DNA of 64,000 nucleotides. Origin: Candidatus Saganbacteria bacterium. GTDB taxonomy: Bacteria > Margulisbacteria > WOR-1 > O2-12-FULL-45-9. Each line of letters opens with the position of its first letter. The stretch's first letter is position 1. The notes below the pieces were generated by a model. The model was not told the DNA's origin and searched no databases. It saw nothing but the letters and a program-made list of their open reading frames with translations. Shown here piece by piece: positions 3,438 to 20,742 of this stretch. The translations under genes and the position numbers were made by a program. Where the stretch lies: NCBI GenBank assembly GCA_016932255.1, contig JAFGDE010000015.1, positions 29,694 through 93,693 of the forward strand, written 5' to 3'.

Positions 3438-5249
3438 ATGCGTGAACGACTGCGTCTTTTGGGTTCTTACTTCAAGCTCATTCTCCCCTACTGGGATAAG
3501 AGCCTGCTTTCCCTTCTTTGCGTCGGCCTGACCGTGCTGTTCAGCATGGCTAGTCCTCTTATCACTAAAGTCTTGATAGACATCGTCTATCCCAGCCATG
3601 ATATTTATCTTTTGACCTTTTTGGTCATTTTGGGCGTCGTGATCTTTATTTTCAGCACCTTTTTCGCCGATGTCTCAAGCTATCTGGACACCTATATCCA
3701 CCAGACCCTCTCGATCGACTTGCGCAAGAAGTTCTTCACCAAGGTACTGCGGCTCCCGCTCAAGTCCCAGCACGAGAAGCAGGTCGGCGACCTGATGGTC
3801 AGGGTGACCGATGACATCGACATGATCGTGGACAATGTGGCTGAGCTGTTGCCGGTCGTGGTCAAGACCTTGCTGCAGCTAGCCGCCTTACTGGCTATCT
3901 GCTGGATGATCGACTGGAATTTAACGTTGCTGGCCCTGGGCGGCATCCCTTTTTATTTTATTCAAACCAGGTTCTTTGCCAAGCGCTTTGAAGAGGTCCA
4001 GGAGCGTTCACAAAAAAGAGCCTCCGAAGTCTATACTTTCTATCAGGAGAAAATGAGCAATGTTAAGACGATCAAGTCGTTCAACCAGGAAATATACGAG
4101 ACCGATCGTTTGATCGACAAGCTCAAGAAAATGTTCACCCTGGCCAGAGAGAATCTGTTCCTGCAGTTCTTTAATTCTTTTTTTGATGCCACACTGATCA
4201 CTCTCTGGACCAGCTTTTTAGCTTGGTTCGCCGGCTATCGCGTGATCACTGGCCAGATCACTATCGGCGAGATCATGGCCATTCTGATCTATCTGGGTCA
4301 GATCCATCAGCCGTTCATGGACTTTGGCGAGGTCTATAAAGCCATTAACCGAAACTTTGTCTCGATCGACCGCGTTGAGGAGATCATGACCGATGAGCCG
4401 GAAGCTTTTTCCGACATTAAATCTTTTGTGCTTTTCCAGATCGACGGCCGGATTAAATTTGACCATGTCAGCTTCATGTACCATGACGCCACGGAATTCA
4501 TCCTCAAGGATATTTGCCTGGAAGCCGGTCCCGGCCATGTCACGGCCATCTGCGGGACCAGTGGCGCGGGCAAGAGCACGATCATGGACCTGCTGCTCCG
4601 CTTTGTTGAACCGACCGAAGGCAAGATATATATTGATGAACATGACCTTAAGCAGGTCTCTTTAATGACCTTGCGCGCTTACATCTCGATCATTTCCCAG
4701 GATGTGGTGCTTTTCTCCGGTACGATCAGGGAGAACTTACAGTACGGCCGCAAGCAGGTAGATGAGGAAAAGATGGTCCAGGCGGCCAGGAATGCTGAGA
4801 TACACGATTTTATCGCCAGCTTGCCGGCCGGCTACGACACCCTGATCGGTGAAGGCGGGCTTGATCTGTCCGGCGGACAGAAGCAGCGCCTGTCCATTGC
4901 TCGCGCCCTCTATCGTGAAGTGAAGATCCTGGTCATGGACGAAGCCACTTCTGCTCTTGATAGCATCACAGAAAGCAAGATCTACCAGAACCTAAAGTCC
5001 CATTTCCAGAACAGGACCGTATTGCTGATTACCCATCGCCCATCCTCCCTGAAGAATGCTGACATGATCTACGTTATTTCGGACAACCTGATATCTGAAC
5101 AGGGCATTTTCGATGACCTGATCGAGAAAAAAGGTGATTTCTACAGTTTCTATCAGGCCCAGATCCAGGAAAGCGAAGCTGAAATCAATGAGAAGCTGAA
5201 GCTTGCCCGCTACACCGGGATCAAGGACCTGGAGGAGGAAGAGGCATGA
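3438..5249 (+). CDS. ABC exporter, fused permease/ATPase half-transporter (MsbA/bacteriocin-exporter type, no C39 peptidase domain)
   Basis: N-terminal multi-TM domain. Walker A GTSGAGKST, signature LSGGQKQRLSIARAL, Walker B ILVMDEATSALD, H-loop LITHR. Confidence 0.9.
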   Translation: MRERLRLLGSYFKLILPYWDKSLLSLLCVGLTVLFSMASPLITKVLIDIVYPSHDIYLLTFLVILGVVIFIFSTFFADVSSYLDTYIHQTLSIDLRKKFFTKVLRLPLKSQHEKQVGDLMVRVTDDIDMIVDNVAELLPVVVKTLLQLAALLAICWMIDWNLTLLALGGIPFYFIQTRFFAKRFEEVQERSQKRASEVYTFYQEKMSNVKTIKSFNQEIYETDRLIDKLKKMFTLARENLFLQFFNSFFDATLITLWTSFLAWFAGYRVITGQITIGEIMAILIYLGQIHQPFMDFGEVYKAINRNFVSIDRVEEIMTDEPEAFSDIKSFVLFQIDGRIKFDHVSFMYHDATEFILKDICLEAGPGHVTAICGTSGAGKSTIMDLLLRFVEPTEGKIYIDEHDLKQVSLMTLRAYISIISQDVVLFSGTIRENLQYGRKQVDEEKMVQAARNAEIHDFIASLPAGYDTLIGEGGLDLSGGQKQRLSIARALYREVKILVMDEATSALDSITESKIYQNLKSHFQNRTVLLITHRPSSLKNADMIYVISDNLISEQGIFDDLIEKKGDFYSFYQAQIQESEAEINEKLKLARYTGIKDLEEEEA

Positions 5250-5470: not shown

Positions 5471-5848
5471 ATGGCAAAACAGGTTAAAATACTGGTCGTG
5501 GATGATGATCTGGCTGTCCTGGAATCATTCAAGATGATCCTGGGCATAAAAGACTACTTTGTCAAGACCGCCAAGGACCTGGCCGAAGCTGTGGCTGCAG
5601 CCAAGGCGGATAAGTTCGATGTCGCCTTCATTGACTTGCGCTTTGAAGGCAAAGAGATCGGCCTGGATATCCTGGCGGAGATCAAAAAGATCGCTCCGGC
5701 AGTTGAATGCATCATCTGTACCGCATTTGCCTCTGACCAAAGCAAGGCAGGCGCGATCGAGCGCGGCGCCCTGGGCTACATCAGCAAGCCCTTTATGATG
5801 GAAACTATTTACGAGCAGATCGATAAGGCTCTGGGAAAGAAGAAGTAG
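5471..5848 (+). CDS. response regulator, receiver domain only (CheY-like)
   Basis: KILVVDDDLAVLE, FDVAFIDLRFEG, ICTAFAS, YISKPF; 125 aa with no output domain; starts 3 nt after the preceding ORF. Confidence 0.85.
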   Translation: MAKQVKILVVDDDLAVLESFKMILGIKDYFVKTAKDLAEAVAAAKADKFDVAFIDLRFEGKEIGLDILAEIKKIAPAVECIICTAFASDQSKAGAIERGALGYISKPFMMETIYEQIDKALGKKK

Positions 5849-5912: not shown

Positions 5913-7493
5913 TCAGTGCTTTCTAGCCGTCCACAAGCCTACCGCTGTTGGTTCATTGTTCACTGAAGCAGTATCGCCTGCCGCATGAGAAGGTTCGAAA
6001 TATTCAAAATGGTCCAAGGAAAACCCGGCCTGAACACAATAAGATCGATAGGCTGCGACATTTTCCAAAGAATCCAATATCTTGAAGGGCGGCCAATGCT
6101 CCGGTGGTACCGGATGTTCGCTTGAGTGTTGAGTAAGCCATTGCAAGTAAGCCTGAAAACTAAAACCAGGCTCAGACATCATTTCTGACAGGATATACTC
6201 TCTTGCCTCTCTGCGAATTTCCCTGGCCAGCCCTTCTCCGATCACATCTTTGTTGAATCCCAGCAATGTCGTTGTCATATGAACAACATCAGAAGCATAT
6301 CTGCTGGCCGTTCGATCAGAGATCTCAGTGCTGACCCTGACCGTGGCCCCGCTTGCCTGAAGTTGGAGCATCTCTTCGGTCATCTGCTGGCCCTGCCTAA
6401 GCTTGAACGTCCGCCTATTACCTTGCGCACTTATCTCCACGGTCCTTTCCCAAGAATCCTTCGACCCGATCTTGACATAAGGCGAGTTCAGGAACGGAAT
6501 AAACGCATCCCAAGCGATCATCTCTCCCCCGGACCCTAAAAGCTTGTGGATCTGCTGGAAAGCCTTAGCCTTGTCCGGCGTATGAGATATCGCAGCACCG
6601 GAAACCACCAGGCTTACACGCCCCAGATACGGGATTAAAACATGATTCGTATCCATATAATAAAATTCTCCAGGCGCCTCAACAATATTCTCCGCCGGAA
6701 AGCCGAATTGTTCAGTTAACGCCTTTTTCAAAGCGGAAACTTTTTTTGCGTCCGTATCGAACAGGATCAGCCTTATTTTACGCAAGCTGTCCAACGTTAT
6801 TTCGCCAGTTCGAGAGCCGGCCATAATTTCCCTGATAATCGGAGCGATCGTTCCTCCAATGCCAACCCCCGCATCGAGAATAACAAAATCATCTAAAGCC
6901 CCGGCAGACTGCCATTGTCTCAACCTCTGCATTGCCTTTTGCCGGATTTTCTCGTTACCAACGGAATAGGCCTTAGTAAGTTGGTTGAGGTCGATATCAT
7001 AATTATCTGTCGTTGCTTGGTCGTTCCACTCGACCCTAAAATCATATTCCCCGATGATCTTCATCGCCTCAACAAAGATGTCCCTGATCTCTGCCATTCC
7101 ACGCCGCTGACTTCCTATCAAGCCGCGCCTTAAGCCTGCGTTCCCCGTTGTCTCGATTACCTTCTGATAGAGCGCGGGGATGTCAACAAAGAATTCCAGG
7201 CTAGGTGCATCTATCCTGGCCAGGGAACCACGACAATTTGCCGGATAATTCCCCGCTGAAAAACCCGGATCGAAACAATTATCCAGAAATTCAATATAGG
7301 GGTCCTTTACCGGCGATTGCGCCCTTTTGCTGGCGACGCCGAAGGAAGGATTGGCCAGTTCTTTGGCCAGATCCCGGATCAACCGGCCCCTGCTAAGCGC
7401 CCGGGTCCGGCCCTGTAAGCTTCCTATATTACTGATCCTTATTTGATTGTTCAATAGTCTTATCTTCATAAATTTGCGCAATAGATGCGCCAT
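5913..7493 (-). CDS. class I SAM-dependent methyltransferase domain protein (526 aa, long flanking extensions)
   Basis: Motif I-like FVILDAGVGIGGT followed by IRLILFDTD and a SGGEMIAWD region. The rest is unassigned. Confidence 0.6.
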   Translation of the reverse strand: MAHLLRKFMKIRLLNNQIRISNIGSLQGRTRALSRGRLIRDLAKELANPSFGVASKRAQSPVKDPYIEFLDNCFDPGFSAGNYPANCRGSLARIDAPSLEFFVDIPALYQKVIETTGNAGLRRGLIGSQRRGMAEIRDIFVEAMKIIGEYDFRVEWNDQATTDNYDIDLNQLTKAYSVGNEKIRQKAMQRLRQWQSAGALDDFVILDAGVGIGGTIAPIIREIMAGSRTGEITLDSLRKIRLILFDTDAKKVSALKKALTEQFGFPAENIVEAPGEFYYMDTNHVLIPYLGRVSLVVSGAAISHTPDKAKAFQQIHKLLGSGGEMIAWDAFIPFLNSPYVKIGSKDSWERTVEISAQGNRRTFKLRQGQQMTEEMLQLQASGATVRVSTEISDRTASRYASDVVHMTTTLLGFNKDVIGEGLAREIRREAREYILSEMMSEPGFSFQAYLQWLTQHSSEHPVPPEHWPPFKILDSLENVAAYRSYCVQAGFSLDHFEYFEPSHAAGDTASVNNEPTAVGLWTARKH

Positions 7494-7553
7494 ATATTAT
7501 CGTCATTTTTCCATCATTATTTCAGGTAAAAGCAAATCCTGCCATAACGGACA

Positions 7554-7562
7554 TGTTATAAT
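7554..7562 (+). promoter_or_regulatory. extended -10 promoter element (TGTTATAAT) upstream of the B12-type rSAM gene
   Basis: tgttataat at 7554-7562 matches TGnTATAAT, 16 nt before ATG 7579. No good -35. Confidence 0.4.
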
Positions 7563-7578
7563 CATTTTGTTGGTCATT

Positions 7579-8910
7579 ATGCCTGACATATCACTTATCA
7601 ATCTGTCTTATAGCTACTGGAACAATTTACCGCTCGGCACACTATCAGTCGCCTCAGCCCTATCAAAACAAGGGATACGCGCCGACCTGCATAATTGCAA
7701 CCTGAACGAAACGGATCTAACCAGTTTCCGCGCTCTAATAAAGAGCTCTGCCGACATAGTTGGCATAGGCTGCTCGATCAGCTCTCTTCCGGATATCATT
7801 TATTATATAAAAAATATCAAGGCAACACATAAAAATAAAATCTTTATTCTGGGCGGCCCAGGCCCCACGATCATGCATAAAGAGATCCTCTCTCATTTCC
7901 CCTTCATTAATATGATCGCATGCGGCGAAGCTGAAGAGATCATTGCCCCGGCCATCAAGATGATCAGATCAAATGATTGGAACTCTCTGCGAAATCTTCC
8001 AGGCATAAGTTTCTCCTTTGATAAGCAGATACACTTGAGCGAGAAACCGGCCTTTATCCGGGACCTTGACTCCCTGCCTCTGCTGGACTATTCGCTGCTC
8101 GATCTGGGCGCATATACGCCGATCTCATACGAAACAGCGCGCGGCTGTATCGGCAAGTGTTCCTATTGCACTCTGAAAGGCAATTTCAGGCAAAAGAGCA
8201 TTGAAAGGATCGGCCTTGAGCTTCGCCAACTCAAGAGATTTGGGGTAAATAAGTTGCGTATCGTTGATAATACTTTCAACGTTAATCGTGATTATATTAA
8301 AACATTTTGTGAATTGACCAAAGCCCTGGGATTACGCTGGTCATGTGAATGCCGGATCGACAACATGGATGAAAGATTGCTCGAACAAATGGGCCGCGGA
8401 GGATGCGAGGAGATCTTTTTCGGCGCTGAATCAGGCTCGGACAAGGTTCTAAGAGATATCCGAAAGGGTTACTTGTCAAAGGACATCGAGGAGATCGTTA
8501 CCTGCGCTCTCAAACATATCCCGAGCGTAACAGCCAGTTTCATGTGGGGCTTTCCTTTCGAAACATTCAATGATTTTCTTTGCACCCTGGAACTCGGCCA
8601 GAAGTTGAATGACAGGGGTGCTTTTAAACTGCTCAATATATTGACCCCGATCCCCGGCAGCTTTCTTTACAGAAAATATAAGAGCTTGCTGGAGTTCTAT
8701 CCGTACAAACTGACGCCCAGTTATATTTGGCCGAGGCTGTATTTTTGGGAGAAAAAAGAAAAGAACCAATTAATAAAACTGATCAAACAGTATCCCGACG
8801 TTTTTCCCTGTTATTATACCTATCGTTCGAAAGGGTTAAAAAAGAAGATCGATCACATCATCAAGGAACGGATCAGCTGCGGCTGGTCGCTTGGCGAAGA
8901 AGAGTTCTAA
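7579..8910 (+). CDS. B12-binding-domain radical SAM protein
   Basis: CIGKCSYC (CxxxCxxC) after a ~190-aa Rossmann-like N-domain (IVGIGCSISS, FILGGPGPT). I prefer ATG 7579 (MPDISLINLSY) over the track start 7447, which would overlap the divergent gene 5913..7493. Confidence 0.8.
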   Translation: MPDISLINLSYSYWNNLPLGTLSVASALSKQGIRADLHNCNLNETDLTSFRALIKSSADIVGIGCSISSLPDIIYYIKNIKATHKNKIFILGGPGPTIMHKEILSHFPFINMIACGEAEEIIAPAIKMIRSNDWNSLRNLPGISFSFDKQIHLSEKPAFIRDLDSLPLLDYSLLDLGAYTPISYETARGCIGKCSYCTLKGNFRQKSIERIGLELRQLKRFGVNKLRIVDNTFNVNRDYIKTFCELTKALGLRWSCECRIDNMDERLLEQMGRGGCEEIFFGAESGSDKVLRDIRKGYLSKDIEEIVTCALKHIPSVTASFMWGFPFETFNDFLCTLELGQKLNDRGAFKLLNILTPIPGSFLYRKYKSLLEFYPYKLTPSYIWPRLYFWEKKEKNQLIKLIKQYPDVFPCYYTYRSKGLKKKIDHIIKERISCGWSLGEEEF

Positions 8911-9989
8911 GAGCCGATTAGCTTGACCAGTTCACGCTGGCAATGATCCAGACATTTTTTTGCCAATGACTTATTGGTCCTCAATGCCTTCCTGGCATAA
9001 CTCCGGCAATGTCTACATCCCCGGCAATCGCTCCTGCAGTCCGGCTTATTTTTTATGAAGTAGTCCAAAAAACCGTCCAGCGCCTGATTATCTATGTAAA
9101 AAACCCTGCCCAGGTCATCCGGCGTTGAAAAACATTCGAATAAATGTTGCAGGTTGCCCCTGAAATTCCCTTTCATATAGGTCTCCACCGTTCGTGGGAG
9201 GTCATAGTCGATCGGTTTGCGGCCTATGATCTTGAAATACTTAACTCCTCGACTAGCATAAGAACGCACATCTTCGGGCCGGATCCAGCCCGCCTTAATC
9301 CTCTCAAGTGGATTGCCCAGCTGCTGCATGGCACAGCGCAATTTTATATAATCATCTTTTGCCGCACCATCTTTCGTACTGGTGCCGTGCGCATTGACGT
9401 TGTAATGATACTGTTCGAAGGGACAATTGTTAACACAAAGAAAATTTACTATCAGCTCTGTGTCAACTTCCCTGCTGGCATGTTCGATAAACTCAAAGTC
9501 CCTGTTCATGTTCTCATCAAGATTGATCCGATCGCACCCTAATGCCTTGAAGGCCATGACCTTATTGATCGAGTCGACCTGGGCAATGACCGAAGCAGTC
9601 ACCTTCTGTTCCAGGAAATGCCTTTTTACCAACTCGATTACAGACGGAACAGCAATCGTGAAACGATCCACGCCGCAATCGATCAGGCTGGCCACGAAGC
9701 CTATTATCCTCTTGACTCCGCGGGGCTGCAGCTCAAGATTGCCCCAGCATGAAGCATTTAAAGTGTAATTGAATTGGATGCTCCGCCGATGCGAATGACG
9801 GATATACTTGCTCAGCTCTTTGAGGTTAATCTTTGGGAGTTTCGAGGCATGGCGGCCGGAACCTATATCAGGCAAGAGAATATTGCCATATGTTTCGATT
9901 ATCTGATCACTAGCATACCTATCGTTCAGAACGGAATATGCATCTAATGTGCGCTTTTCGTAGTCAGCAGGCAGGCAATAATAACTCAT
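8907..9989 (-). CDS. U32-family-like protein (peptidase U32 / UbiU-UbiV-type fold) with Cys-rich C-terminal tail
   Basis: TIM-barrel-like pattern: GVDRFTIAVPSVIELVKRHF, VTASVIAQVDS, ALGCDRINLDENMNRD, ELIVNFLCVNNCPF. This resembles the U32 signature region. C-terminus: CRSDCRGCRHC. Judged by eye only. Confidence 0.45.
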   Translation of the reverse strand: MSYYCLPADYEKRTLDAYSVLNDRYASDQIIETYGNILLPDIGSGRHASKLPKINLKELSKYIRHSHRRSIQFNYTLNASCWGNLELQPRGVKRIIGFVASLIDCGVDRFTIAVPSVIELVKRHFLEQKVTASVIAQVDSINKVMAFKALGCDRINLDENMNRDFEFIEHASREVDTELIVNFLCVNNCPFEQYHYNVNAHGTSTKDGAAKDDYIKLRCAMQQLGNPLERIKAGWIRPEDVRSYASRGVKYFKIIGRKPIDYDLPRTVETYMKGNFRGNLQHLFECFSTPDDLGRVFYIDNQALDGFLDYFIKNKPDCRSDCRGCRHCRSYARKALRTNKSLAKKCLDHCQRELVKLIGS

Positions 9990-10010
9990 CCGATCACCAC
10001 CGGATAAATT

Positions 10011-10043
10011 TAGCCCTTATGCAAAGCCTACGCATAAGGGCTA
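10011..10043 (-). terminator. perfect 12-bp-stem hairpin between the 45-aa ORF and the U32-like gene (possible attenuating terminator)
   Basis: tagcccttatgc (10011-10022) / gcataagggcta (10032-10043), 9-nt loop. Flanks are A/T-rich but there is no long U-tract. Confidence 0.5.
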
Positions 10044-10060
10044 AAATATTTGATTACTCC

Positions 10061-10198
10061 TTACCAGGAACCGCCAACCTTGATAGCCTTATTGACCTGC
10101 TTTTTTAGAGACATTAAATCGGCCTGAACTTTCATCGCAGCTTTCCTAATGTCTTTTTTATTAGTTATTTTCCCTTTGGCTGCCTTTTTAATAGCCAT
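10061..10198 (-). CDS. unannotated 45-aa Lys-rich ORF (candidate precursor peptide or small basic protein)
   Basis: Codon-by-codon reverse translation gives MAIKKAAKGKITNKKDIRKAAMKVQADLMSLKKQVNKAIKVGGSW, then TAA. GAGGAGGTG SD lies 5 nt before the ATG (GGAGG core 7 nt). It has its own promoter. It is below the 60-aa track cutoff. Confidence 0.5.
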   Translation of the reverse strand: MAIKKAAKGKITNKKDIRKAAMKVQADLMSLKKQVNKAIKVGGSW

Positions 10199-10221
10199 AA
10201 TTTCACCTCCTCTTGTCTATC

Positions 10222-10250
10222 ATATTAAGCCTCATTATCTGGATTGTCAA
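10222..10250 (-). promoter_or_regulatory. near-consensus sigma70-type promoter for the 45-aa ORF
   Basis: On the minus strand: TTGACA (10250-10245), 17-nt spacer, TAATAT (10227-10222). It sits just after the stop of the upstream GT gene. Confidence 0.6.
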
Positions 10251-10254
10251 CCTT

Positions 10255-11076
10255 TTAGCCGTTTCTTCCCGGACCCCTCATATATTCCGCATGGCTTTCC
10301 AGCCTGGCGCATATTTGTCTTTTAATTTCTATCTGTTCCCTTGCGCTCAATTTCAGTCTGCGCCTCTTGATCATATTATCCACAGCTGTCATTAGGACTC
10401 GTTTTCTCTCGCTCATGTTAATCTTGATTAATTGATTTTGCTGATGCACCCGCTTCAAATATAAGATCTTATCCAATAGATGGATTGGCCCAATTTCTTC
10501 AAGCTGAAGAAAGATGTTAATATCCCCGCCTATCGCTTTAATGACTTCGCCTTTTCCCTTGAGGTCTATTCCCCTCCAACCCGAGGTTTTCTCATAGGCC
10601 GAACGTTTAATAATATATGGTTGACCAAAATTGATGGGATCGACCGTTGCGCCTTTGTAAAAAGTCCTTGGCTGGAATATATAATTGTGAGCTGGGATAG
10701 CGATATAACGGCCCTGAGCATTAATGGCCCGGAATCTCCCTCTGACCAGCACAGCTTCAGGATGTCTGGCACAATAACGGCTGAAGGCTTTGACCGAATC
10801 CGCCACTAAAAGATCATCATCATCGATCAGGAAAAAGTATTTTGCCGATGTTCTGTCGATTAGCCAGCGTTTCGCCTCACCGCTACCCAAGTCTTTTCCA
10901 GCAAAATGCACCGCGACCTTGGGGCTGGAAAACTCTTTACAAATGGAATATATCTCGGGATCGTTCCTGGCCACCAGAACGGTCAACTTCCAATTGTTCG
11001 CCTTCTGCCTCAGAACGCTCTTGATTGAAGCGATAGACAATCTGCCTTTTCGGGTCACCGGCATAAGAATGTCCAT
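10255..11076 (-). CDS. glycosyltransferase-like protein (GT2-like, DxD)
   Basis: MDILMPVTRKGRLSIASIKSVLRQ..., KLTVLVARND, FFLIDDDDLL. I use ATG 11076, 1 nt after the upstream stop at 11078-11080, rather than the track start 11157. Confidence 0.6.
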   Translation of the reverse strand: MDILMPVTRKGRLSIASIKSVLRQKANNWKLTVLVARNDPEIYSICKEFSSPKVAVHFAGKDLGSGEAKRWLIDRTSAKYFFLIDDDDLLVADSVKAFSRYCARHPEAVLVRGRFRAINAQGRYIAIPAHNYIFQPRTFYKGATVDPINFGQPYIIKRSAYEKTSGWRGIDLKGKGEVIKAIGGDINIFLQLEEIGPIHLLDKILYLKRVHQQNQLIKINMSERKRVLMTAVDNMIKRRRLKLSAREQIEIKRQICARLESHAEYMRGPGRNG

Positions 11077-11077
11077 A

Positions 11078-11974
11078 TCAAACACTTTTTTTACCTCTTT
11101 TGATCCTAAATAAATGATAAATGAACCAGGCCAAGGAACAAATAAAATAGCGGACATGGGACAGCATTTGACAAAATAATTTCCCTAAAAAGATAATTTT
11201 ACGCCGAAGTGAATAGTTCTTTATAATAAAATATATACGATTCCTCATCTCTCTGCGGTTCAACAAAAGCCAGTCAATCTTTATCGGCGCATTGATGTAA
11301 TATCGGCCTTCACTGGAAGGCCGATGAGCAATCTCCAGTTTTGGCTCGACGATTAATTCGTAACCGGCCTGTTTAATGCGATAAAATATGTCCAGGTCTT
11401 CATGGAGCCATTCATAATATTCGTCGAACTGACCGACTTGATCCAAGACCCTTTTCGGCACAACGGCAAAACAGGTGCTCAAATAATCAGAGTCATTGAT
11501 CTGCCGCTTAGCGAATAGATTCTTCCTGTCGGCCAACAGATCCATTGTGCCGTCCCAAGAACGCAGATAAAGGCCCAGATGCTGTATCCTGTCCCTGTTC
11601 CAATAATAAATCTTTCCACTCAGTCCACCAATACTGCCCTTGCCGTCCATTAGCCTGAGAATGGCCGGGAATATCCCTCGGCTCAGGATGACTGCATCAG
11701 AATCAAGAAAGACGATGTATTTCCCGGTTGCTAGGGCTACGGCCTGATTCCTTGCCTTGGCTGGACTGAACGCTTGGCCATTTCTTATAAGCTTGATATC
11801 GAGATGGTCCTTAAAAGTTTCGATCACTTTGATCGAAGCATCGTCGGAAGCATTATCGACAATGACCAGCTCAAGGTCAACATAGCTTTGCTCCAGCACC
11901 GAAAGCAAACATTCTTGCAAGGCGCTGGCACGATTCCGCGTCACAACAATGATCGAAAACATATTGGTTTTCAC
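11078..11974 (-). CDS. family 2 glycosyltransferase
   Basis: FSIIVVTRNRASALQECLLSVLEQSY, LVIVDNASDD, IVFLDSDAV. 4-nt overlap with the upstream gene. Confidence 0.85.
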   Translation of the reverse strand: MKTNMFSIIVVTRNRASALQECLLSVLEQSYVDLELVIVDNASDDASIKVIETFKDHLDIKLIRNGQAFSPAKARNQAVALATGKYIVFLDSDAVILSRGIFPAILRLMDGKGSIGGLSGKIYYWNRDRIQHLGLYLRSWDGTMDLLADRKNLFAKRQINDSDYLSTCFAVVPKRVLDQVGQFDEYYEWLHEDLDIFYRIKQAGYELIVEPKLEIAHRPSSEGRYYINAPIKIDWLLLNRREMRNRIYFIIKNYSLRRKIIFLGKLFCQMLSHVRYFICSLAWFIYHLFRIKRGKKSV

Positions 11975-12816
11975 TTTAAGACGGCCCCTTGTCTTTCTAT
12001 AAGCTTCATGAGAGCCTTTGAATGATTTTTATTGTGGTATCTTTTGGCTAATGCGACACCCCACCCTGGCTTGCCCAAATCATCAAGGACCCTGATGACC
12101 TGCCGGAAGTATGTCAAGCTTACCTTCTCTTTCTTTTTCATCATTTGCGACAGACGTTTGGCGTATACCCGACGGCAGTTATCCGCTAAAAGTCTCTCTT
12201 CTTTAAGGCAGATGTTCCCGCCATGGATGTTATGCTTACCGACAAGTTTTGGCACATGGCGGAACGGATAAGCATCGGAAAGCCGCAAAAGGAACTCCCA
12301 ATCCTCAAAAATCGTCAATGTTTCATCAAAAACACCAATGCGCTCAACACAGGCCCGGCGATGGAGAATGACAAGGGGATAGAGATAGTTCCCTCGCTCG
12401 AGTTTTGCCCGCCGATGCTTCGGACGAACGACCTGAAGCCTTGTGCCGTAATCGATATGGCAATCACCATATACAAGCCCAACCTCCGACTTATCTTCTA
12501 GTGCCGCAACGAGATATTTTAAATGGTCAGGATAATATTCATCGTCATCGTCACAATAAGCTATATACTGTCCTGATGAAGCTCTTATCGCAGCATTCCT
12601 GCAGGCCGCTGCTCCCGAATGTCGTTTCTTGATCAATCTTATTCTGCTGTCTTTATATTTTTTCAATTCCCTCTCGGTTGCTTGCTCTGGCCCGTCTAGA
12701 ACCACTAAAAGTTCCCAATTATCGTAGGACTGCGCCAGAACACTGCTGACCGCACGACCGATCAAATCAGACCTTTTGAATGTCGGCATGACAATGCTGA
12801 CCAACGCGCGCTTCAT
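11971..12816 (-). CDS. family 2 glycosyltransferase
   Basis: VSIVMPTFKRSDLIGRAVSSVLAQSY, LLVVLDGPE, IAYCDDDDEYYPDHL. 4-nt overlap with the upstream rSAM gene. Confidence 0.85.
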   Translation of the reverse strand: MKRALVSIVMPTFKRSDLIGRAVSSVLAQSYDNWELLVVLDGPEQATERELKKYKDSRIRLIKKRHSGAAACRNAAIRASSGQYIAYCDDDDEYYPDHLKYLVAALEDKSEVGLVYGDCHIDYGTRLQVVRPKHRRAKLERGNYLYPLVILHRRACVERIGVFDETLTIFEDWEFLLRLSDAYPFRHVPKLVGKHNIHGGNICLKEERLLADNCRRVYAKRLSQMMKKKEKVSLTYFRQVIRVLDDLGKPGWGVALAKRYHNKNHSKALMKLIERQGAVLK

Positions 12817-13859
12817 TTATCTCCGCCTCGGCCCGACCGGCCACTCTTGCTCTGAACTTCAAGATATCTCTTTAGATTATCGATAAAGAAACAATCATGG
12901 ATACAGTAGCACTTCGTAATTCTGCGCCTCATCTCTTCGGCAGCTTTTGATCGCCAAACCTTGGGAAAACAAAGATCATGATCACGCACATTACCAACAG
13001 GCCGAGTGAACTCACAAAGCGCCACCGCGCCATCAGCATAAAGGATCCCCTGATCCTGGCCCGCTGAACAGCTAGAAAAGATCGGCTTGCCGGTCTTGAG
13101 CATCTTTATCTGATAAGTCAACCGCTTGAACAGGTGTGACCTATCCCGATATTTCCCCTTTTTCCGGAAATACCTGTCCATCTTCTCAAGTTTTTTTATC
13201 GGCGGCAATTTCAACTTGGTCGGCTTGAGGTCGGCAATCGTTTCTTCATTCAGGCCCCATATCGTCCCTGGTATCTGGCGCATTATCATGAGATGCTGCT
13301 CCACTCCGATCTCTTTAGCCAGATACTCCGATAACTCCTCCATCTCATCGATGTTGCCCTCATGGACAACCGTCAAGACAGCAACACCTAGATTCGTCGA
13401 CTGCCGCTGCAGTTCTTTCATCAGAGAAACCGTCTCAAGCGCAGCGCTGAACGATCCCGGAACAGATCGAATGCTATCATGCGTGGGAGCAAATCCATCA
13501 ATCGAGACCTGCACTAATATCGGACAGGCACAATCATCAACGATCTTGGACATTTGCCGGGCAATCTCTCCGGACATCAAACCATTAGTACAAATAAAGA
13601 TCTCCTTGGAACCATTGAGCTTATAGAACGCTTTTGCGATCTGCGGCAGATCCTCCCTGAGGAAAGGCTCGCCGCCGGTCAGACTTAATAGCTCCAAGGG
13701 CGCCTGAAACGAAGCTGCTATTTTTTTGATCTCCGATAGGGACAATTCTCTGTTCGAACGTGTCTTGTTCGTTGGCACAAAGCAGTGCTTGCATTTCAGG
13801 TTGCACCTATCGGTCACAAAAAAACCCAATTTTTTGAGGATTACGTCCATTTTATTCAC
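12813..13859 (-). CDS. radical SAM protein with C-terminal SPASM/twitch-like Cys cluster
   Basis: CNLKCKHC near the N-terminus, LTGGEPFL. C-terminal: SSCSAGQDQGILYADGAVALC...GNV...CYCIHDC. Confidence 0.85.
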   Translation of the reverse strand: MNKMDVILKKLGFFVTDRCNLKCKHCFVPTNKTRSNRELSLSEIKKIAASFQAPLELLSLTGGEPFLREDLPQIAKAFYKLNGSKEIFICTNGLMSGEIARQMSKIVDDCACPILVQVSIDGFAPTHDSIRSVPGSFSAALETVSLMKELQRQSTNLGVAVLTVVHEGNIDEMEELSEYLAKEIGVEQHLMIMRQIPGTIWGLNEETIADLKPTKLKLPPIKKLEKMDRYFRKKGKYRDRSHLFKRLTYQIKMLKTGKPIFSSCSAGQDQGILYADGAVALCEFTRPVGNVRDHDLCFPKVWRSKAAEEMRRRITKCYCIHDCFFIDNLKRYLEVQSKSGRSGRGGDK

Positions 13860-15216
13860 GCAATAACCTTACAAATTCCCTGGTATTAGAACCATGGGCC
13901 TTATAATAATCCATGAAATCCATGGGCCTATCTTTGATATTGTACGCCTCGGGATCAAGATGCATTGGCGCAGCCGGTTCAATTAGGACATCAAGGTGAA
14001 ATATCTGGTCAACATGCCTATATCTGCCTTTTATGAATCGAATCATCTTCCTGGTCATTCGTTTTGCGCTCTCGGGCTGGCCAGGCATTTCCTTTATGAA
14101 ATACAGGATCGAACGTATCCCTTTAGCTTCAAAATAATCCAGGGCTCGGTAAAATTGATCGTTCGAATAGTAGTGACCCTTGATCTTCTTCCTGAATGAT
14201 TCCGAGCCGCTTTCCGGTGAAAGAGATATATCACTGCCAGGCAGGAAGGTGCGCTCAAACTCGTCGATCAATCTCTTTGAGGGGATGCCCCATGATTCAA
14301 AATCAGCATATATTTTTAGCCCTGCCCGGCGTATACGCCGGAACAATTCAATATAATAACCTGGTCTTCCGGGACAGGGGTCGAAACAGAAATGAAAGAT
14401 CCTGATCTTATAAGTACGGTAATATTTTTGAATATCATGGACTACGCTGTTTATGTCGCGAAAGATCACTTCCTTCCTGCCAAAAAGCATTTTTTGACTT
14501 GAGCGTGACCCGCCGCAGTATGCGCAATCTACGCTGCATCCCCGGCCCAGAGGCACCACAAAGGACCTAACGGGATGCCCGTCAAGCAGGGAGCCGCCGG
14601 GGGACAAAGCCAGTGCATCCAAATAGTTGTCATATTTGTAGATCAGATCAAAATCAGTAAAAGAGAAAGAGTCATTGTCCTTCTTACTAACGACATAGGA
14701 CAGCTTGTTGACAATTATTTTGCCTGAGCTATTTCTCCAGGCGAGATTCGGCACAGAAGCCAAGTCATCAGAACCTCTTTTGCTCTTCAGCAACAGCTCA
14801 TACAGGGGCCGCTCACCATCGCCCCGGATCACGGCATCGACAAAATGGAACCTGGTCAAGATCTGTTCATAAAAGAACGTGGCAGAAAAGCCCCCCATGA
14901 CCACCCTGGCATTAGGTTTTAGCCTTTTTATCATTTCCACTACTTTTATGGTGTGATAGGTTTGATAATGCCACTGCAACGAAACCGCTATTAAAGATAC
15001 ATCGGTCAAGCTGTTCAAATATTCTTTGAGCGAAAAGGCAGGGTCCTGCCTGACCTCGCTTCCTACATTCAGTATCTCAACGCGACATTGCCGCTTCTTT
15101 AAATAAGAGGCCATGGAAAAGAAACCGTGAGGCAGCTTGAGAACGGTTGGTTCCTTGCGAGAGAACCTTGGAATATGCAGCAGAAGACAATCGATCTTGC
15201 GTTTTCTTTTGGTCAT
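13852..15216 (-). CDS. B12-binding-domain radical SAM protein
   Basis: GCSVDCAYCGG after an N-domain with DCLLLHIP and VVMGGFSATF. I prefer ATG 15216 (MTKRKRKIDCLLL) over the track start 15288. Confidence 0.8.
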   Translation of the reverse strand: MTKRKRKIDCLLLHIPRFSRKEPTVLKLPHGFFSMASYLKKRQCRVEILNVGSEVRQDPAFSLKEYLNSLTDVSLIAVSLQWHYQTYHTIKVVEMIKRLKPNARVVMGGFSATFFYEQILTRFHFVDAVIRGDGERPLYELLLKSKRGSDDLASVPNLAWRNSSGKIIVNKLSYVVSKKDNDSFSFTDFDLIYKYDNYLDALALSPGGSLLDGHPVRSFVVPLGRGCSVDCAYCGGSRSSQKMLFGRKEVIFRDINSVVHDIQKYYRTYKIRIFHFCFDPCPGRPGYYIELFRRIRRAGLKIYADFESWGIPSKRLIDEFERTFLPGSDISLSPESGSESFRKKIKGHYYSNDQFYRALDYFEAKGIRSILYFIKEMPGQPESAKRMTRKMIRFIKGRYRHVDQIFHLDVLIEPAAPMHLDPEAYNIKDRPMDFMDYYKAHGSNTREFVRLLRE

Positions 15217-15337
15217 AAATATATCTTTTCTCGGGTGAATGCCTAACGCCTTATAGATTATATCACACTCAATAGACCATAAAAACAACGACAGACCCTC
15301 GCTTTCGCCCGATATTTAAGGGAGAGCGCTCACTGGT

Positions 15338-15366
15338 TTGACTTCAACGTTATTTAGAGTTATATT
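15338..15366 (+). promoter_or_regulatory. sigma70-type promoter for the divergent rSAM pair 15399..18211
   Basis: TTGACT (15338-15343), 17-nt spacer, TATATT (15361-15366), 32 nt before ATG 15399. Confidence 0.55.
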
Positions 15367-15398
15367 GTTCACAGCAAAATGAATGCCAGGCAAGTATC

Positions 15399-17042
15399 AT
15401 GCATCTATTACTGATCGCGCCTCGTTGCCCTCCGAACCAGAGGACCATACCGCTAGGCTTGGCATATATCTCATCCTATCTGAAAAAGGCTGGCAAGAGC
15501 GTTGATTGCCTTGACCTAAACCACTCCGAAGAACCTGTCGCCCAAATCCTACAAAGCTGTTTTAGAAAGAAGCGCTATTCTATTATCTGTTGTGGCGGCC
15601 TTTCGATCTACTACCATCAGATCAAAGAGCTTGTTGAACTCTCACGCAAATATTGCCCCGGAGCAAAAATAGTTCTAGGCGGGGCCTTGGTCTCTTGTGA
15701 GCCCGAGTTGATGCTTGATTCACTTAGGCCGGACTACATTGTGATTGGCGAAGGGGAGCAAACAATCCTGGACCTGATCGACCACCTGGAAAATAAACAA
15801 CCTGTTGAGACAGTGAAAGGGCTCGCTTTCAGGAACAGTCATGGTAAATGCATGCTGTCCCTACCCCGGCCAAGACTGACCGACTTGGATGCCCTGCCGA
15901 TACCCGACTATGAAGCCTTCGGCTACGAACAGTATCTGGACAACATGCATCCGAGCGATATTGAGTTCTACGATATCTTCGATCATCCCCGCGTCCATAG
16001 CATCGTCGGCAGCCGGGATTGTCCTTTCCGGTGCACTTTCTGTTACCATGTTCTGGGCGGAAAATACACCCAAAGATCGATAAAATCAATAATGGACGAG
16101 CTTGAATATGTGGTCAAAAAATATCGGATCAATGTTATTTCCTTTTATGATCAGCTTTTCGCCAAGGACCCTGAGCGCGTCCTCGAGCTATGTTCTAAGA
16201 TCAAGCCTTTCCTTAACTCACTGCCATGGGATTGTAGATGGTTCGTGGCCGGTCTCAGGGTGCCGGATATTAGCGATCACTTGATAAAAGCAATGATCGA
16301 CGCTGGCTGCTTCATGATCTCGTTCGGCCTAGAAAGCTACAGCATTGACATCCTAAAAAGCTATAAGAAACGGACGACCCCGGAACAAATAGAGCGGGCG
16401 GTCCGAACCACTTTCAACAACAGGATCAGCTTGTGGGCGAATTTTGTCTTTTTTGATATTGCCGAAACAAAGCACACAGCTCAGATAACGCTGGATTACT
16501 GGATAAAGAACAGTCAGATTGGTTTGGAACTGACTCATTTGCGCCCCTTCCCCGGCACGGCTATCTACAAGCACTGCTTGGCCAAAGGAACTATTAAAGA
16601 CAAGCTGAAATTCGTCGCCGATGCCAGCCAGCAGTGTTTTAATACGAGCGACCAATTGACTGAGGAAGAATTCAATGAGGTCAGACATAGGATCGCTGAA
16701 GCCTGGGCTCTTCACAGAAAATATGCTGTACCGGAATCTTTGCAGCGTTCAAGCGACGGCACAATATGTTTTACCATAGAATGCCCTCATTGCAAAAGCT
16801 CCATTAAATACAGCAATTATCTATACATCTGGCCGGGAATGAAAATATATTGCCGCCGGTGTCGCAAGACCTTTTTCATGATATCCACCAGACGCAAGCT
16901 TATAAGCCTATCATTACTTTGCATCATTGCCAAAATTGTGCCGGGCAGACTTTGGCAATACTGGAACGGTCTGACCCGCGAATACTTGAGAAAAACTTTC
17001 GACTATGATGACGACAAGATCGAGATATTGTCAGACGAATAG
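15399..17042 (+). CDS. B12-binding-domain radical SAM protein with C-terminal zinc-ribbon and hydrophobic anchor
   Basis: MHLLLIAPR, IVLGGALVS, DCPFRCTFC. C-terminal ECPHC...YCRRC is followed by the helix LISLSLLCIIAKIV. Confidence 0.8.
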   Translation: MHLLLIAPRCPPNQRTIPLGLAYISSYLKKAGKSVDCLDLNHSEEPVAQILQSCFRKKRYSIICCGGLSIYYHQIKELVELSRKYCPGAKIVLGGALVSCEPELMLDSLRPDYIVIGEGEQTILDLIDHLENKQPVETVKGLAFRNSHGKCMLSLPRPRLTDLDALPIPDYEAFGYEQYLDNMHPSDIEFYDIFDHPRVHSIVGSRDCPFRCTFCYHVLGGKYTQRSIKSIMDELEYVVKKYRINVISFYDQLFAKDPERVLELCSKIKPFLNSLPWDCRWFVAGLRVPDISDHLIKAMIDAGCFMISFGLESYSIDILKSYKKRTTPEQIERAVRTTFNNRISLWANFVFFDIAETKHTAQITLDYWIKNSQIGLELTHLRPFPGTAIYKHCLAKGTIKDKLKFVADASQQCFNTSDQLTEEEFNEVRHRIAEAWALHRKYAVPESLQRSSDGTICFTIECPHCKSSIKYSNYLYIWPGMKIYCRRCRKTFFMISTRRKLISLSLLCIIAKIVPGRLWQYWNGLTREYLRKTFDYDDDKIEILSDE

Positions 17043-18211: not shown

Positions 18212-18345
18212 TTGGTCCGGCCCTTCCCCTGCTTCAACCCTGACAGTTTCTTGATCGCCTTGCTCAAGGAAACATTGGCTGACTTGAGATCGGTGTAGAT
18301 CGAAACGATCTTCTTTTGCGAATGGCTCTGCTGCTTCTTTGCCAT
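18208..18345 (-). CDS. unannotated 45-aa Lys-rich ORF, possible paralogue of 10061..10198
   Basis: Codon-by-codon translation gives MAKKQQSHSQKKIVSIYTDLKSANVSLSKAIKKLSGLKQGKGRTN, then TAA. AGGAGGG SD overlaps the stop of the porin gene. It shares MA.KK and DLxS(x6)KAIK with the other 45-aa ORF. Confidence 0.45.
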   Translation of the reverse strand: MAKKQQSHSQKKIVSIYTDLKSANVSLSKAIKKLSGLKQGKGRTN

Positions 18346-20691: not shown

Positions 20692-20713
20692 TGCGGCTAT
20701 TATAGCATAAAAT

Positions 20714-20742
20714 TTGACGGCTCCAGGCGTCAATGATATAAT
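20714..20742 (+). promoter_or_regulatory. consensus-like promoter immediately upstream of the DUF1015 gene
   Basis: TTGACG (20714-20719), 17-nt spacer, TATAAT (20737-20742). GTG 20752 follows 9 nt later. Confidence 0.5.

Follow-up and report, generated by a model that had tools for sequence, protein, structure and literature searches.

A short gene with an invariant C-terminal tail inside a radical-SAM, glycosyltransferase and iron-sulfur enzyme cluster suggests a candidate modified, sugar-decorated peptide

Gene content and signals of the locus

The window analyzed here, a 64,000-nucleotide stretch of contig JAFGDE010000015.1 from a Candidatus Saganbacteria MAG, contains a nine-gene cluster (7447..17042) in which a 45-residue ORF lies among radical SAM (rSAM) enzymes, GT2 glycosyltransferases and a U32-like protein (Table 1). 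A sequence-only reading had reported this ORF together with a promoter, a Shine-Dalgarno (SD) sequence and a trailing hairpin, and every one of these features was found where that reading had placed it; hence, its observation is confirmed. The one correction is that the ORF, which had been described as hidden, is already annotated by NCBI as the hypothetical protein JW782_04855 / MBN2058102.1, and is therefore family-less rather than hidden, with no family for it in either Pfam or NCBIfam. The promoter-like site is by itself not remarkable, being one of ten sites scoring 10 of 12 or better in 16 kb, whereas 23.6 sites of 9 of 12 or better are expected by chance. In contrast, the SD has the strongest predicted anti-SD pairing (-13.2 kcal/mol) of the 53 ORFs tested in the window. 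The perfect 12-bp stem of the hairpin (10011..10043) extends to 15 bp and folds with a dG of -27.4 kcal/mol and z = -4.47, with 0 of 200 shuffles folding as well. It is not called by a simple terminator scan and its U-tract is weak; it is not a dispersed repeat in the window, and an Rfam scan of the region was empty. The U32-like gene starts 19 nt after the extended hairpin (21 nt after the 12-bp core) and can only be transcribed by read-through, as would be expected for a precursor gene followed by a leaky terminator.

Table 1. Features of the peptide gene and the surrounding conserved module
Position	Strand	Feature	Properties	Counterpart in the second organism
7447..8910	+	B12-binding rSAM enzyme, convergent	Best NCBIfam match is ApyD, a RiPP C-methyltransferase (PMC10635010)	51% identical (L083)
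8907..9989	-	U32-like protein, probably a metal or Fe-S tailoring enzyme	Invariant Cys185, Cys189 and Cys219; C-terminal CxxxCxxCxxC motif	58% identical (L083)
10009..10045	-	15-bp hairpin, proposed leaky terminator	Between the peptide gene and the U32-like gene	14-bp stem followed by UUUUUU; two stem pairs differ by compensatory changes (L083)
10061..10198	-	45-aa ORF (ATG 10198..10196, TAA 10063..10061), candidate precursor or scaffold peptide	MAIKKAAKGKITNKKDIRKAAMKVQADLMSLKKQVNKAIKVGGSW; basic, pI 10.7, 13 Lys+Arg	Syntenic 48-aa ortholog
10064..10084	-	Codons for the C-terminal IKVGGSW, the proposed core	Followed directly by TAA	Identical residues
10204..10212	-	Shine-Dalgarno sequence	GAGGAGGTG, 5 nt upstream of the ATG	Identical sequence and spacing (L003/L083)
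10222..10250	-	Promoter-like site, in the 56-nt gap after the GT2 gene	TTGACA (10250..10245), 17 nt, TAATAT (10227..10222); 10 of 12	-35 hexamer conserved, within AGGTTGACA
10255..11157	-	GT2 glycosyltransferase c	True start probably internal, near residue 25-28 of the longest ORF; no TM segment found	51% identical (L083)
11078..11974	-	GT2 glycosyltransferase b		56% identical (L083)
11971..12816	-	GT2 glycosyltransferase a		43% identical (L083)
12813..13859	-	rSAM enzyme with a SPASM domain	rSAM core starts at residue 15, leaving no room for an N-terminal RRE	56.5% identical (L083)
13852..15288	-	B12-binding rSAM enzyme, probably first gene of the minus-strand operon	Nearest NCBIfam TIGR04190	52% identical (L083)
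15399..17042	+	B12-binding rSAM enzyme of a sugar-tailoring family, divergently transcribed		69-72% identical (L083/L085)

Conservation in a second organism

The sequence-only reading had named a search for the peptide in related genomes, and its co-occurrence with the SPASM rSAM, as tests of a link to the enzymes. Direct searches were negative: word-indexed searches and an exhaustive HMMER search of 1.84 billion proteins with the peptide returned only the peptide itself. Synteny, however, revealed a second organism (L083) with nine collinear genes at 43-72% protein identity and the 48-aa ORF in the same slot, together with the SPASM rSAM, the B12-rSAMs, the GT2s and the U32-like gene, while the genes outside the module differ between the two organisms. 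The match between the two peptides is better than all 2000 shuffles, but without the last seven residues the similarity is marginal (p about 0.05), the N-terminal parts sharing only basic composition. The seven terminal residues and the stop are identical despite three synonymous nucleotide changes (GGC to GGA, and TCC to AGC), including a Ser codon-family switch. The stretch covering the -35 hexamer is one of only four conserved DNA islands shared by the two loci. This comparison shows that the feature is more than chance. About 20 nt in the window and about 50 nt in L083 separate the hairpin from the U32-like start, so read-through is required in both, and the hairpin of L083 is a canonical U-tract terminator. 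The helical look that the sequence-only reading had seen in the peptide is not conserved in the ortholog, whose N-terminal part contains Gly and Pro.

No third ortholog was found in the searches made. A scan of genome contigs with the U32-like protein gave one distant locus, an NRPS context with no small ORF. A metagenome scan for I-K-V-G-G-[S/T/R/C/W]-W followed by a stop (or Trp) codon gave 73 hits, all of them chance matches inside long ORFs or in trivial frames; this negative result is weak, since the scan also failed to return two JGI contigs known to carry the motif. A weak hit within the window at 5627..5698 is antisense to a response-regulator gene and was rejected. A second 45-aa ORF (18208..18345) and an 89-aa ORF in locus L085 were tested as paralogs, but the similarities are marginal (p 0.02-0.05, uncorrected) and the shared SW-stop ending is within chance. 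Likewise, a 49-aa ORF beside the U32/TldD/SPASM genes of another locus (L091) is acidic and unrelated.

Relatives of the U32-like protein lie in NRPS/PKS lines and in a TldD/SPASM cluster, and segments similar to the B12-rSAM at 13852..15288 are embedded in NRPS proteins next to U32-like genes in two loci (L090 and L002). The best matches of the enzyme at 7447..8910 are ApyD and the MCR glutamine C-methyltransferase. On the other hand, homologs of the B12-rSAM at 15399..17042 at 43-45% identity lie in nucleotide-sugar clusters, and its L083/L085 ortholog directly follows RmlC and two dehydratase/reductase-type genes; hence, at least this B12-rSAM belongs to a sugar-tailoring family and not to a peptide-modifying one. 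The SPASM enzyme reaches no curated peptide-maturase family cut-off and matches peptide, cofactor and nucleoside-sugar rSAMs about equally weakly; comparison of the SPASM, U32-like and B12-rSAM proteins with PDB sequences did not discriminate peptide from sugar substrates, and structure prediction was not attempted. No priming phosphoglycosyltransferase, flippase, ABC exporter, polymerase or ligase was found in the conserved nine-gene unit of either organism, although such genes could lie elsewhere in the genome, and the GT2s have no TM segments. The real surface-glycan loci (L086-L089), by comparison, do carry flippase, chain-length or export genes of this kind (Wzx-type, PMT_2, Wzz, MatE).

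A possible role for the peptide and its tail

Taking these findings together, we propose, with moderate confidence, that the ORF encodes a ribosomally made precursor or scaffold peptide of the conserved module, and that its C-terminal IKVGGSW is modified and probably glycosylated. The analysis itself shows that this is a real gene under selection at the protein level, with very strong translation signals and its own conserved -35 element, that a conserved hairpin which must be read through separates it from the U32-like gene, and that only its last seven residues, ending in a free carboxyl group, are under strict selection. The rest is inference from these data. The internal promoter and a leaky terminator might keep the peptide in excess over the enzymes, which would recognize and modify the tail directly, without an RRE. 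The SPASM rSAM, the two peptide-type B12-rSAMs and the U32-like Fe-S enzyme might act on Lys, Val, Ile, Ser or Trp of the tail, the candidate reactions being C-C cross-linking or oxidative decarboxylation at the terminal Trp, C-methylation, and O2-independent hydroxylation of the indole ring. The three soluble GT2s might then attach sugars, which would be of the 6-deoxyhexose type and further tailored by the B12-rSAM at 15399..17042; a glycan acceptor is otherwise missing from the unit. The product would be either a glycosylated, modified basic peptide or a small glycosylated Ser-Trp-derived molecule released from the tail, the second option being analogous in layout to mycofactocin.

Several features caution against too firm a reading. 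Only two lineages carry the gene, and there is no biochemistry; modification of the peptide was not assayed, no evidence of it exists, and there are no expression or mass data. Pfam gives no PqqD hit in any cluster protein at E <= 0.01, and the intergenic gaps are too short for an unannotated RRE gene, although an RRE is common but not universal in RiPP systems; no dedicated leader peptidase and no conserved exporter lies in the module. The Lys-rich N-terminal part shows no conserved recognition motif, which is unusual for a RiPP leader, and, as part of the module is clearly sugar chemistry, the remaining rSAMs could also act on sugars. Nevertheless, the ORF has the credible translation signals, the conserved co-location with candidate maturases and the conserved segment that belong to a generic definition of a RiPP precursor.

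The interpretation offered by the sequence-only reading is thus partly supported. Its proposals that the C-terminus is the processed moiety and that the gene belongs with the enzymes agree with the conservation pattern, and its caveat that no RRE is visible was borne out, but its parallel with mycofactocin holds in layout only. The role of a peptidase is unlikely for the U32-like protein, given its invariant Cys motifs, the NRPS/PKS context of its relatives, and the fact that characterized U32 proteins are Fe-S proteins implicated in O2-independent hydroxylation (PMC10990095).

The strongest alternative, which we nonetheless consider doubtful, is that the small basic protein is an accessory, docking or regulatory subunit of a sugar or glycan pathway. 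In this view, the enzymes would build a modified oligosaccharide on some other acceptor, with the invariant tail docking into one enzyme and the basic region binding membrane, nucleic acid or an acidic polymer. Besides the sugar-tailoring B12-rSAM, the Rml-type genes of the L083/L085 module and the three GT2s, this is favored by an SLH-domain envelope protein next to the cluster in the window, by the very basic peptide with no RRE or protease partner, and by other small basic ORFs with strong signals beside both clusters. However, a structural partner would normally be conserved along its length and not only in its last seven residues, the lipid-linked machinery is lacking and the GT2s are soluble, and the relatives of the U32-like enzyme and of the B12-rSAM at 13852..15288 are tied to peptide assembly lines, not glycan loci.

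It is very unlikely that the ORF is a cis-acting regulatory leader or arrest peptide, which would stall the ribosome at the stop codon in response to a metabolite and so control read-through into the U32-like gene. Conservation limited to the C-terminal residues and the stop is typical of arrest peptides (TnaC, SecM), and a hairpin does lie between the ORF and the downstream gene. Yet the spacing from stop to hairpin is not conserved, being 15 nt (17 nt to the 12-bp core) in the window against 33 nt in L083, and the hairpin persists, with no alternative antiterminator pairing in either organism, when the 3' half of the ORF is included in the fold; on these grounds an attenuation model was rejected. 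Further, conserved length and basic composition are not needed for a leader peptide, and the gene's own promoter and strong SD suggest an abundant product. Least likely of all is an unmodified cationic peptide, such as a leaderless bacteriocin-like antimicrobial, or another independent small protein merely sitting in the cluster, since, despite the cationic, amphipathic helical look of the window's copy, its own promoter and terminator and an ABC exporter at 3438..5249, the slot is kept in two diverged clusters with different flanks, the N-terminal "active" part is not conserved, the peptide is hydrophilic overall (GRAVY -0.45) and the exporter is not conserved in L083.

If the proposed reading is right, the locus would define a new RiPP-type family with an enzyme combination (an rSAM-SPASM enzyme, three B12-rSAMs, three GT2s and a U32-like Fe-S enzyme) not described in the literature that we could search. 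It would give an experimentally tractable seven-residue substrate for an uncharacterized U32 subfamily that also occurs in many NRPS/PKS clusters of anaerobes, and extend the idea of small molecules built on the C-terminus of a peptide, as in mycofactocin and PQQ, to tryptophan and to candidate phyla. It also shows that a precursor with no detectable homologs by exhaustive protein search can still be validated through synteny. A more far-reaching possibility, unlikely on present evidence, is a new class of ribosomal peptide natural product from uncultivated anaerobes, in which the invariant C-terminal Ser-Trp tail of a Lys-rich peptide is processed by the rSAM-SPASM enzyme, B12-dependent C-methyltransferases and a U32-type Fe-S enzyme acting as an O2-independent hydroxylase before being decorated with B12-rSAM-tailored deoxysugars by the three GT2s. 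This would be the first link between U32 "peptidase-like" hydroxylases and RiPP chemistry, and the product could be a new Trp-derived glycosylated cofactor or metabolite, parallel to mycofactocin.

Comparison with known systems

In the mycofactocin pathway (MftA precursor, MftC rSAM-SPASM, MftF GT2, MftM methyltransferase), as in this module, a short precursor carries a small residue and an aromatic residue at its extreme C-terminus after Gly (GVY against GGSW), an rSAM-SPASM enzyme and GT2s share one cluster, and the product, made there from the C-terminal Val-Tyr of MftA, is possibly sugar-decorated, with methylation. However, this is not a mycofactocin system: the MftC model (TIGR03962) scores 53.8 bits against a cut-off of 265 and the MftF model (TIGR03965) 81.6 and 70.0 bits against 280, and no MftB (the RRE chaperone), MftD or MftE (the creatininase-type peptidase) was found in the window's cluster or in L083. 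The terminal residue is Trp rather than Tyr, the leader is Lys-rich, and mycofactocin lacks the three B12-rSAMs and the U32-like enzyme. In the aminopyruvatide pathway, the B12-rSAM ApyD C-methylates an aromatic residue within a conserved C-terminal motif of the precursor ApyA (PMC10635010). The enzyme at 7447..8910 scores 162 bits against the ApyD cut-off of 750 and is too short to hold the RRE that ApyD carries, and there is no P450 or MNIO enzyme here.

The Lys-Trp cross-linked rSAM RiPPs (streptide KxxxW type, WGK/tryglysin type, darobactin) likewise pair an rSAM-SPASM enzyme with a short peptide whose conserved C-terminal motif holds a Lys and a Trp separated by small residues (here KVGGSW), a chemistry that was not tested in this study. 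The spacing here is K-x4-W, not K-x3-W, WgkB scores 73.9 bits against a cut-off of 650, the SPASM enzyme has no N-terminal extension of the StrB type with its RRE, and glycosyltransferases, B12-rSAMs and a U32-like enzyme are absent from those systems. Glycocins (SunA/SunS type) share a ribosomal peptide of about 40-50 residues encoded next to GT2-family glycosyltransferases, with a possible Ser acceptor near the C-terminus. However, the SunS family model (TIGR04195) scores 21.6 bits against a cut-off of 350, the GT2s here are short (about 270-300 aa), and neither peptide contains Cys, making the disulfide-stapled helical hairpin of glycocins impossible.

Finally, the U32-like protein can be compared with the U32-family Fe-S hydroxylation factors (UbiU/UbiV, TrhP, RlhA), and an O2-independent, prephenate-dependent aromatic hydroxylation would fit an uncultivated Saganbacteria MAG (PMC10990095, PMC6747719). 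Its Peptidase_U32 match (PF01136) is partial, covering only 68 residues of the model at 35.5 bits, and TrhP scores 22 bits against a cut-off of 534. Among 18 homologs, Cys185, Cys189 and Cys219 are invariant and Cys325 and Cys328 nearly so; as these were not mapped onto the UbiU/V ligands and cluster binding was not measured, the observation does not settle whether they hold a 4Fe-4S cluster. The protein also differs in its extra C-terminal CxxxCxxCxxC motif. Its relatives lie in NRPS/PKS clusters, often as tandem pairs, which points to a distinct, uncharacterized natural-product subfamily.

A small gene and its enzymatic neighborhood

Reading the minus strand of 9900..10400 recovered every element that had been described from the sequence alone, namely a promoter-like site, a Shine-Dalgarno sequence (SD), a 45-codon ORF, and a perfect 12-bp inverted repeat preceding a U32-like gene; hence, the observation stands. 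The ORF translates to MAIKKAAKGKITNKKDIRKAAMKVQADLMSLKKQVNKAIKVGGSW. The promoter-like site, TTGACA and TAATAT separated by 17 nt, scores 10 of 12, but it is one of ten sites at that level or better in 16 kb, and as 23.6 sites of 9 of 12 or better are expected by chance, it is unremarkable on its own. In contrast, the SD, GAGGAGGTG, which lies 5 nt before the ATG at 10198, has the strongest predicted anti-SD pairing (-13.2 kcal/mol) of the 53 ORFs tested in the window. The inverted repeat extends to a 15-bp hairpin whose fold has a dG of -27.4 kcal/mol and a z of -4.47, with 0 of 200 shuffles folding as well. Its U-tract is weak, and a simple terminator scan does not call it; it matches no Rfam family, and its arm is not a dispersed repeat in the window. 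The window comes from a Candidatus Saganbacteria MAG, a clade in the Cyanobacteriota/Melainabacteria group, and NCBI already calls the ORF as hypothetical protein JW782_04855/MBN2058102.1. Thus, contrary to the sequence-only reading, the gene lacks a family but is not hidden.

Searches with Pfam and NCBIfam place this gene among radical-SAM (rSAM), GT2, and U32-like genes. No enzyme of the neighborhood reaches the curated cut-off of any named family, and no PqqD/RRE domain is detected; the rSAM core of the SPASM enzyme starts at residue 15, leaving no room for an N-terminal RRE. A second basic ORF of 45 aa (MAKKQQSHSQKKIVSIYTDLKSANVSLSKAIKKLSGLKQGKGRTN; NCBI JW782_04895) lies 12 nt after the gene for the SLH-domain protein, and its SD (AGGAGG) ranks 4th of 53. 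It shares a weak "..DLxS....KAIK" stretch with the candidate peptide (p of about 0.05 by shuffling), which is not significant after multiple testing.

Coordinates of the features in the window and in the comparison loci
Locus	Coordinates	Strand	Feature
Window	3438..5249		ABC exporter
Window	5913..7493		Weak methyltransferase-like protein
Window	7447..17042		Conserved module
Window	7447..8910	+	B12-rSAM
Window	8907..9989	-	U32-like gene, start at 9989
Window	10011..10043	-	Perfect 12-bp inverted repeat
Window	10061..10198	-	Candidate peptide gene, 45 codons
Window	10063..10061	-	TAA stop of the candidate peptide gene
Window	10212..10204	-	SD
Window	10227..10222	-	TAATAT of the promoter-like site
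Window	10250..10245	-	TTGACA of the promoter-like site
Window	10255..12816	-	Three GT2s
Window	12813..13859	-	rSAM with SPASM domain
Window	13852..15288	-	B12-rSAM
Window	15399..17042	+	B12-rSAM
Window	17057..18211	+	DUF512-like rSAM
Window	18208..18345	-	Second 45-aa basic ORF (JW782_04895)
Window	18358..20733		SLH-domain protein
L085	9949..10218	+	89-aa basic ORF of the second organism
L086	11685..14456		DegT/DnrJ/EryC1 sugar aminotransferase interrupted by an intein
L006	8835..11146		U32 subfamily in an NRPS/PKS line
L008	10001..12361		U32 subfamily in an NRPS/PKS line
L002	3816..4910 and 6512..7645		U32 subfamily in an NRPS/PKS line
L002	7708..12144		NRPS protein with embedded B12-rSAM segment
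L090	8001..9164		U32 subfamily in an NRPS/PKS line
L090	9258..13883		NRPS protein with embedded B12-rSAM segment
L091	8001..16184		U32-like gene with TldD/PmbA-like and rSAM-SPASM genes

Conservation of the gene in a second organism

At the protein level the peptide is an orphan: a word-indexed search and a phmmer search against 1.84 billion representatives each returned only the peptide itself. Synteny, however, provided the answer. The only close relative of the U32-like protein (P0003, 58% identity) lies on contigs with a called 48-aa gene directly upstream, which encodes MGKAARKKVSFKAGVKTKTISKKGVGAAGAKFQNVMKTHPVIKVGGSW. An exact look-up showed the same peptide on a 20.3-kb JGI contig (L083), where the gene order is that of the window: a B12-rSAM (52% identical to its window counterpart), the SPASM rSAM (56.5%), three GT2s (43%, 56%, and 51%, in order), the peptide, the U32-like gene (58%), a convergent B12-rSAM (51%), and a divergent arm ending in the B12-rSAM homologous to 15399..17042 (69-72%). 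Hence, the co-occurrence of the peptide with the SPASM rSAM, which the sequence-only reading had set as a criterion for its proposal, was found in this second organism. In L083 and in L085, a further contig of the same organism, the divergent arm also holds a class-I methyltransferase, RmlC, and two dehydratase/reductase-type genes. Outside these nine genes the two loci share nothing, with L083 carrying a fumarase-type gene where the window has the methyltransferase-like gene and the ABC exporter; the module, with the small gene inside it, is therefore the conserved unit. The contigs L003, L004, L084, and L085 belong to the same second organism (99.97-100% DNA identity to L083 where compared), so the count is two lineages only. 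A pattern scan of metagenome contigs gave only chance hits, but it also failed to return the JGI contigs Ga0136851_10003066 and Ga0118657_10612137, which carry an exact match to the pattern, so that negative results from that collection should be read with caution and the rarity of the gene was not established. The module has 45.7% GC against 51.9% for the whole window, and L083 has 46.5%, which, together with the nonsyntenic flanks, suggests that the module moves horizontally.

DNA comparison of the intergenic regions finds only four conserved islands: AGGTTGACA, which covers the -35 hexamer; the SD, GAGGAGGTG; the last 25 nt of the ORF, including TAA; and GCCCTTAT, the 5' arm of the hairpin. 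The SD-to-ATG spacing is 5 nt in both organisms. The seven C-terminal codons differ at three nucleotides, and all three changes are synonymous, one being GGC to GGA and the other two making the serine family switch TCC to AGC, which points to selection on the amino acid sequence and not on the RNA. The two peptides match better than all 2,000 shuffles, whereas with the last seven residues removed the match is marginal (108 of 2,000 shuffles). What remains shared in the N-terminal part is length (38 and 41 residues) and charge (pI 10.7 and 11.6; 13 and 12 Lys+Arg). The helical, amphipathic look of the window's copy is not kept, as the N-terminal part of the ortholog is rich in Gly and contains Pro.

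The hairpin is structurally conserved. In L083 it is a 14-bp stem followed by UUUUUU, a canonical intrinsic terminator, and two stem positions differ by changes on both sides that keep the pair. Only about 20 nt (window) and about 50 nt (L083) lie between the hairpin and the start of the U32-like gene, which must therefore be transcribed through the hairpin, as fits a partial terminator. Also in the second organism is an 89-aa, very basic ORF that follows the sugar-arm B12-rSAM in L085, with its own promoter-like site, a strong SD, and a canonical terminator, and that ends in NISW. It is the only other ORF ending in SW directly before the stop among 849 ORFs of at least 30 aa in the window, L083, and L085; one such ORF is within chance (about 0.7 by our estimate from typical Ser and Trp frequencies), although it could still be a second substrate.

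Possible substrates of the enzymes

Two lines of evidence point in different directions, and together they fit a glycopeptide. On the sugar side, the B12-rSAM at 15399..17042 belongs to a large family (598 hits at E below 1e-30), members of which at 43-45% identity sit in nucleotide-sugar or surface-glycan clusters in four loci, L086 to L089. Between them these loci carry NTP-transferase, 4,6-dehydratase, DegT aminotransferase, NeuB, TPP enzyme, and sugar C-methyltransferase genes, and Wzx-type flippase, Wzz, PMT_2, or MatE genes. In L086, from another Saganbacteria MAG (GCA_016939335.1), a DegT/DnrJ/EryC1 sugar aminotransferase directly after a B12-rSAM of this sugar-tailoring family is interrupted by an intein with a LAGLIDADG endonuclease domain. 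In L085 the ortholog directly follows the Rml-type genes.

On the peptide side, relatives of the U32-like protein at 35-40% identity lie inside NRPS/PKS lines in the loci L002, L006, L008, and L090, often as tandem pairs reminiscent of UbiU/UbiV. This uncharacterized U32 subfamily with invariant Cys motifs may comprise anaerobic hydroxylases of natural-product pathways. In the locus L091, a U32-like gene is followed by two TldD/PmbA-like genes, an rSAM-SPASM gene, an acidic 49-aa ORF, a transposase, and a second rSAM-SPASM gene, which may be a different RiPP-like cluster that uses the same U32 subfamily. The NRPS proteins next to the U32-like genes in L090 and L002 contain, between the condensation and adenylation domains, an embedded B12-rSAM segment similar to 13852..15288 (E of 6e-23 and 7e-21; 24-27% identity). 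The best NCBIfam match of the 7447..8910 enzyme is ApyD (162 bits), followed by the methyl-coenzyme M reductase glutamine C-methyltransferase (106 bits), while the substrate class of the SPASM enzyme is unresolved. The U32-like family keeps invariant Cys185, Cys189, and Cys219 and a C-terminal Cys cluster. Characterized U32 proteins (UbiU/V, TrhP, RlhA) are Fe-S proteins implicated in O2-independent, prephenate-dependent hydroxylation of aromatic rings (PMC10990095; PMC6747719), and the label "peptidase" is therefore probably misleading here. The conserved unit also lacks a priming phosphoglycosyltransferase, a flippase, and a polymerase, and the GT2s have no TM segments. Thus, a lipid-linked glycan pathway has no visible acceptor, and the peptide tail could be that acceptor.

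Interpretation and comparison with known systems

Taking these findings together, what the analysis itself shows is a real gene with very strong translation signals, embedded in a conserved module, constrained only in its C-terminal heptapeptide, and followed by a conserved hairpin that transcription must read through; that the ORF is a real, functionally constrained gene belonging to the module we consider very likely. The rest of the proposed mechanism is inference. We propose that the internal promoter and a leaky terminator give an excess of precursor over enzymes, a layout found in lantibiotic and sactipeptide operons, and that the tail IKVGGSW-COOH is recognized without an RRE. In this view, rSAM chemistry would act on the tail by cross-linking or decarboxylation at the terminal Trp, by C-methylation, and possibly by U32-type hydroxylation of the indole ring, after which the GT2s would glycosylate it with tailored deoxysugars. 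These specific reactions are speculation; there are no expression or mass data, and the evidence does not distinguish the whole basic peptide from a released Ser-Trp-derived glyco-metabolite as the final product. The interpretation offered from the sequence alone, a precursor peptide, is partly supported, and we regard it as about as likely as not.

The alternative that survives best, though we consider it unlikely, is that the gene encodes an accessory or docking small protein of a sugar pathway. The sugar-linked enzymes, the basic composition, and the absence of an RRE and a protease favor this possibility, whereas the tail-only conservation, the missing glycan machinery, and the peptide-line relatives of the other enzymes argue against it. 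A regulatory arrest or leader peptide is very unlikely, because the stop-to-hairpin spacing is not conserved (15-17 nt against 33 nt) and no antiterminator competes with the hairpin in either organism. An unrelated cationic peptide, such as a leaderless bacteriocin, is slightly less likely still, given that the N-terminal part is not conserved and the gene holds the same slot inside the module in both organisms.

In the literature that could be searched, we found no description of a U32 plus RiPP system, no biosynthetic cluster from Saganbacteria, and no relevant use of the VGGSW motif. The system resembles mycofactocin in layout, with a C-terminal small-plus-aromatic dipeptide after Gly, an rSAM-SPASM enzyme, GT2s, and methylation. 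However, it fails every criterion for mycofactocin that we applied: MftC scores 53.8 bits against a cut-off of 265, MftF scores 81.6 against 280, and there is no MftB, MftD, or MftE. It is also not a streptide, WGK, or glycocin system. We place it, as a new form, with the already known rSAM-type RiPP or peptide-derived metabolite pathways.
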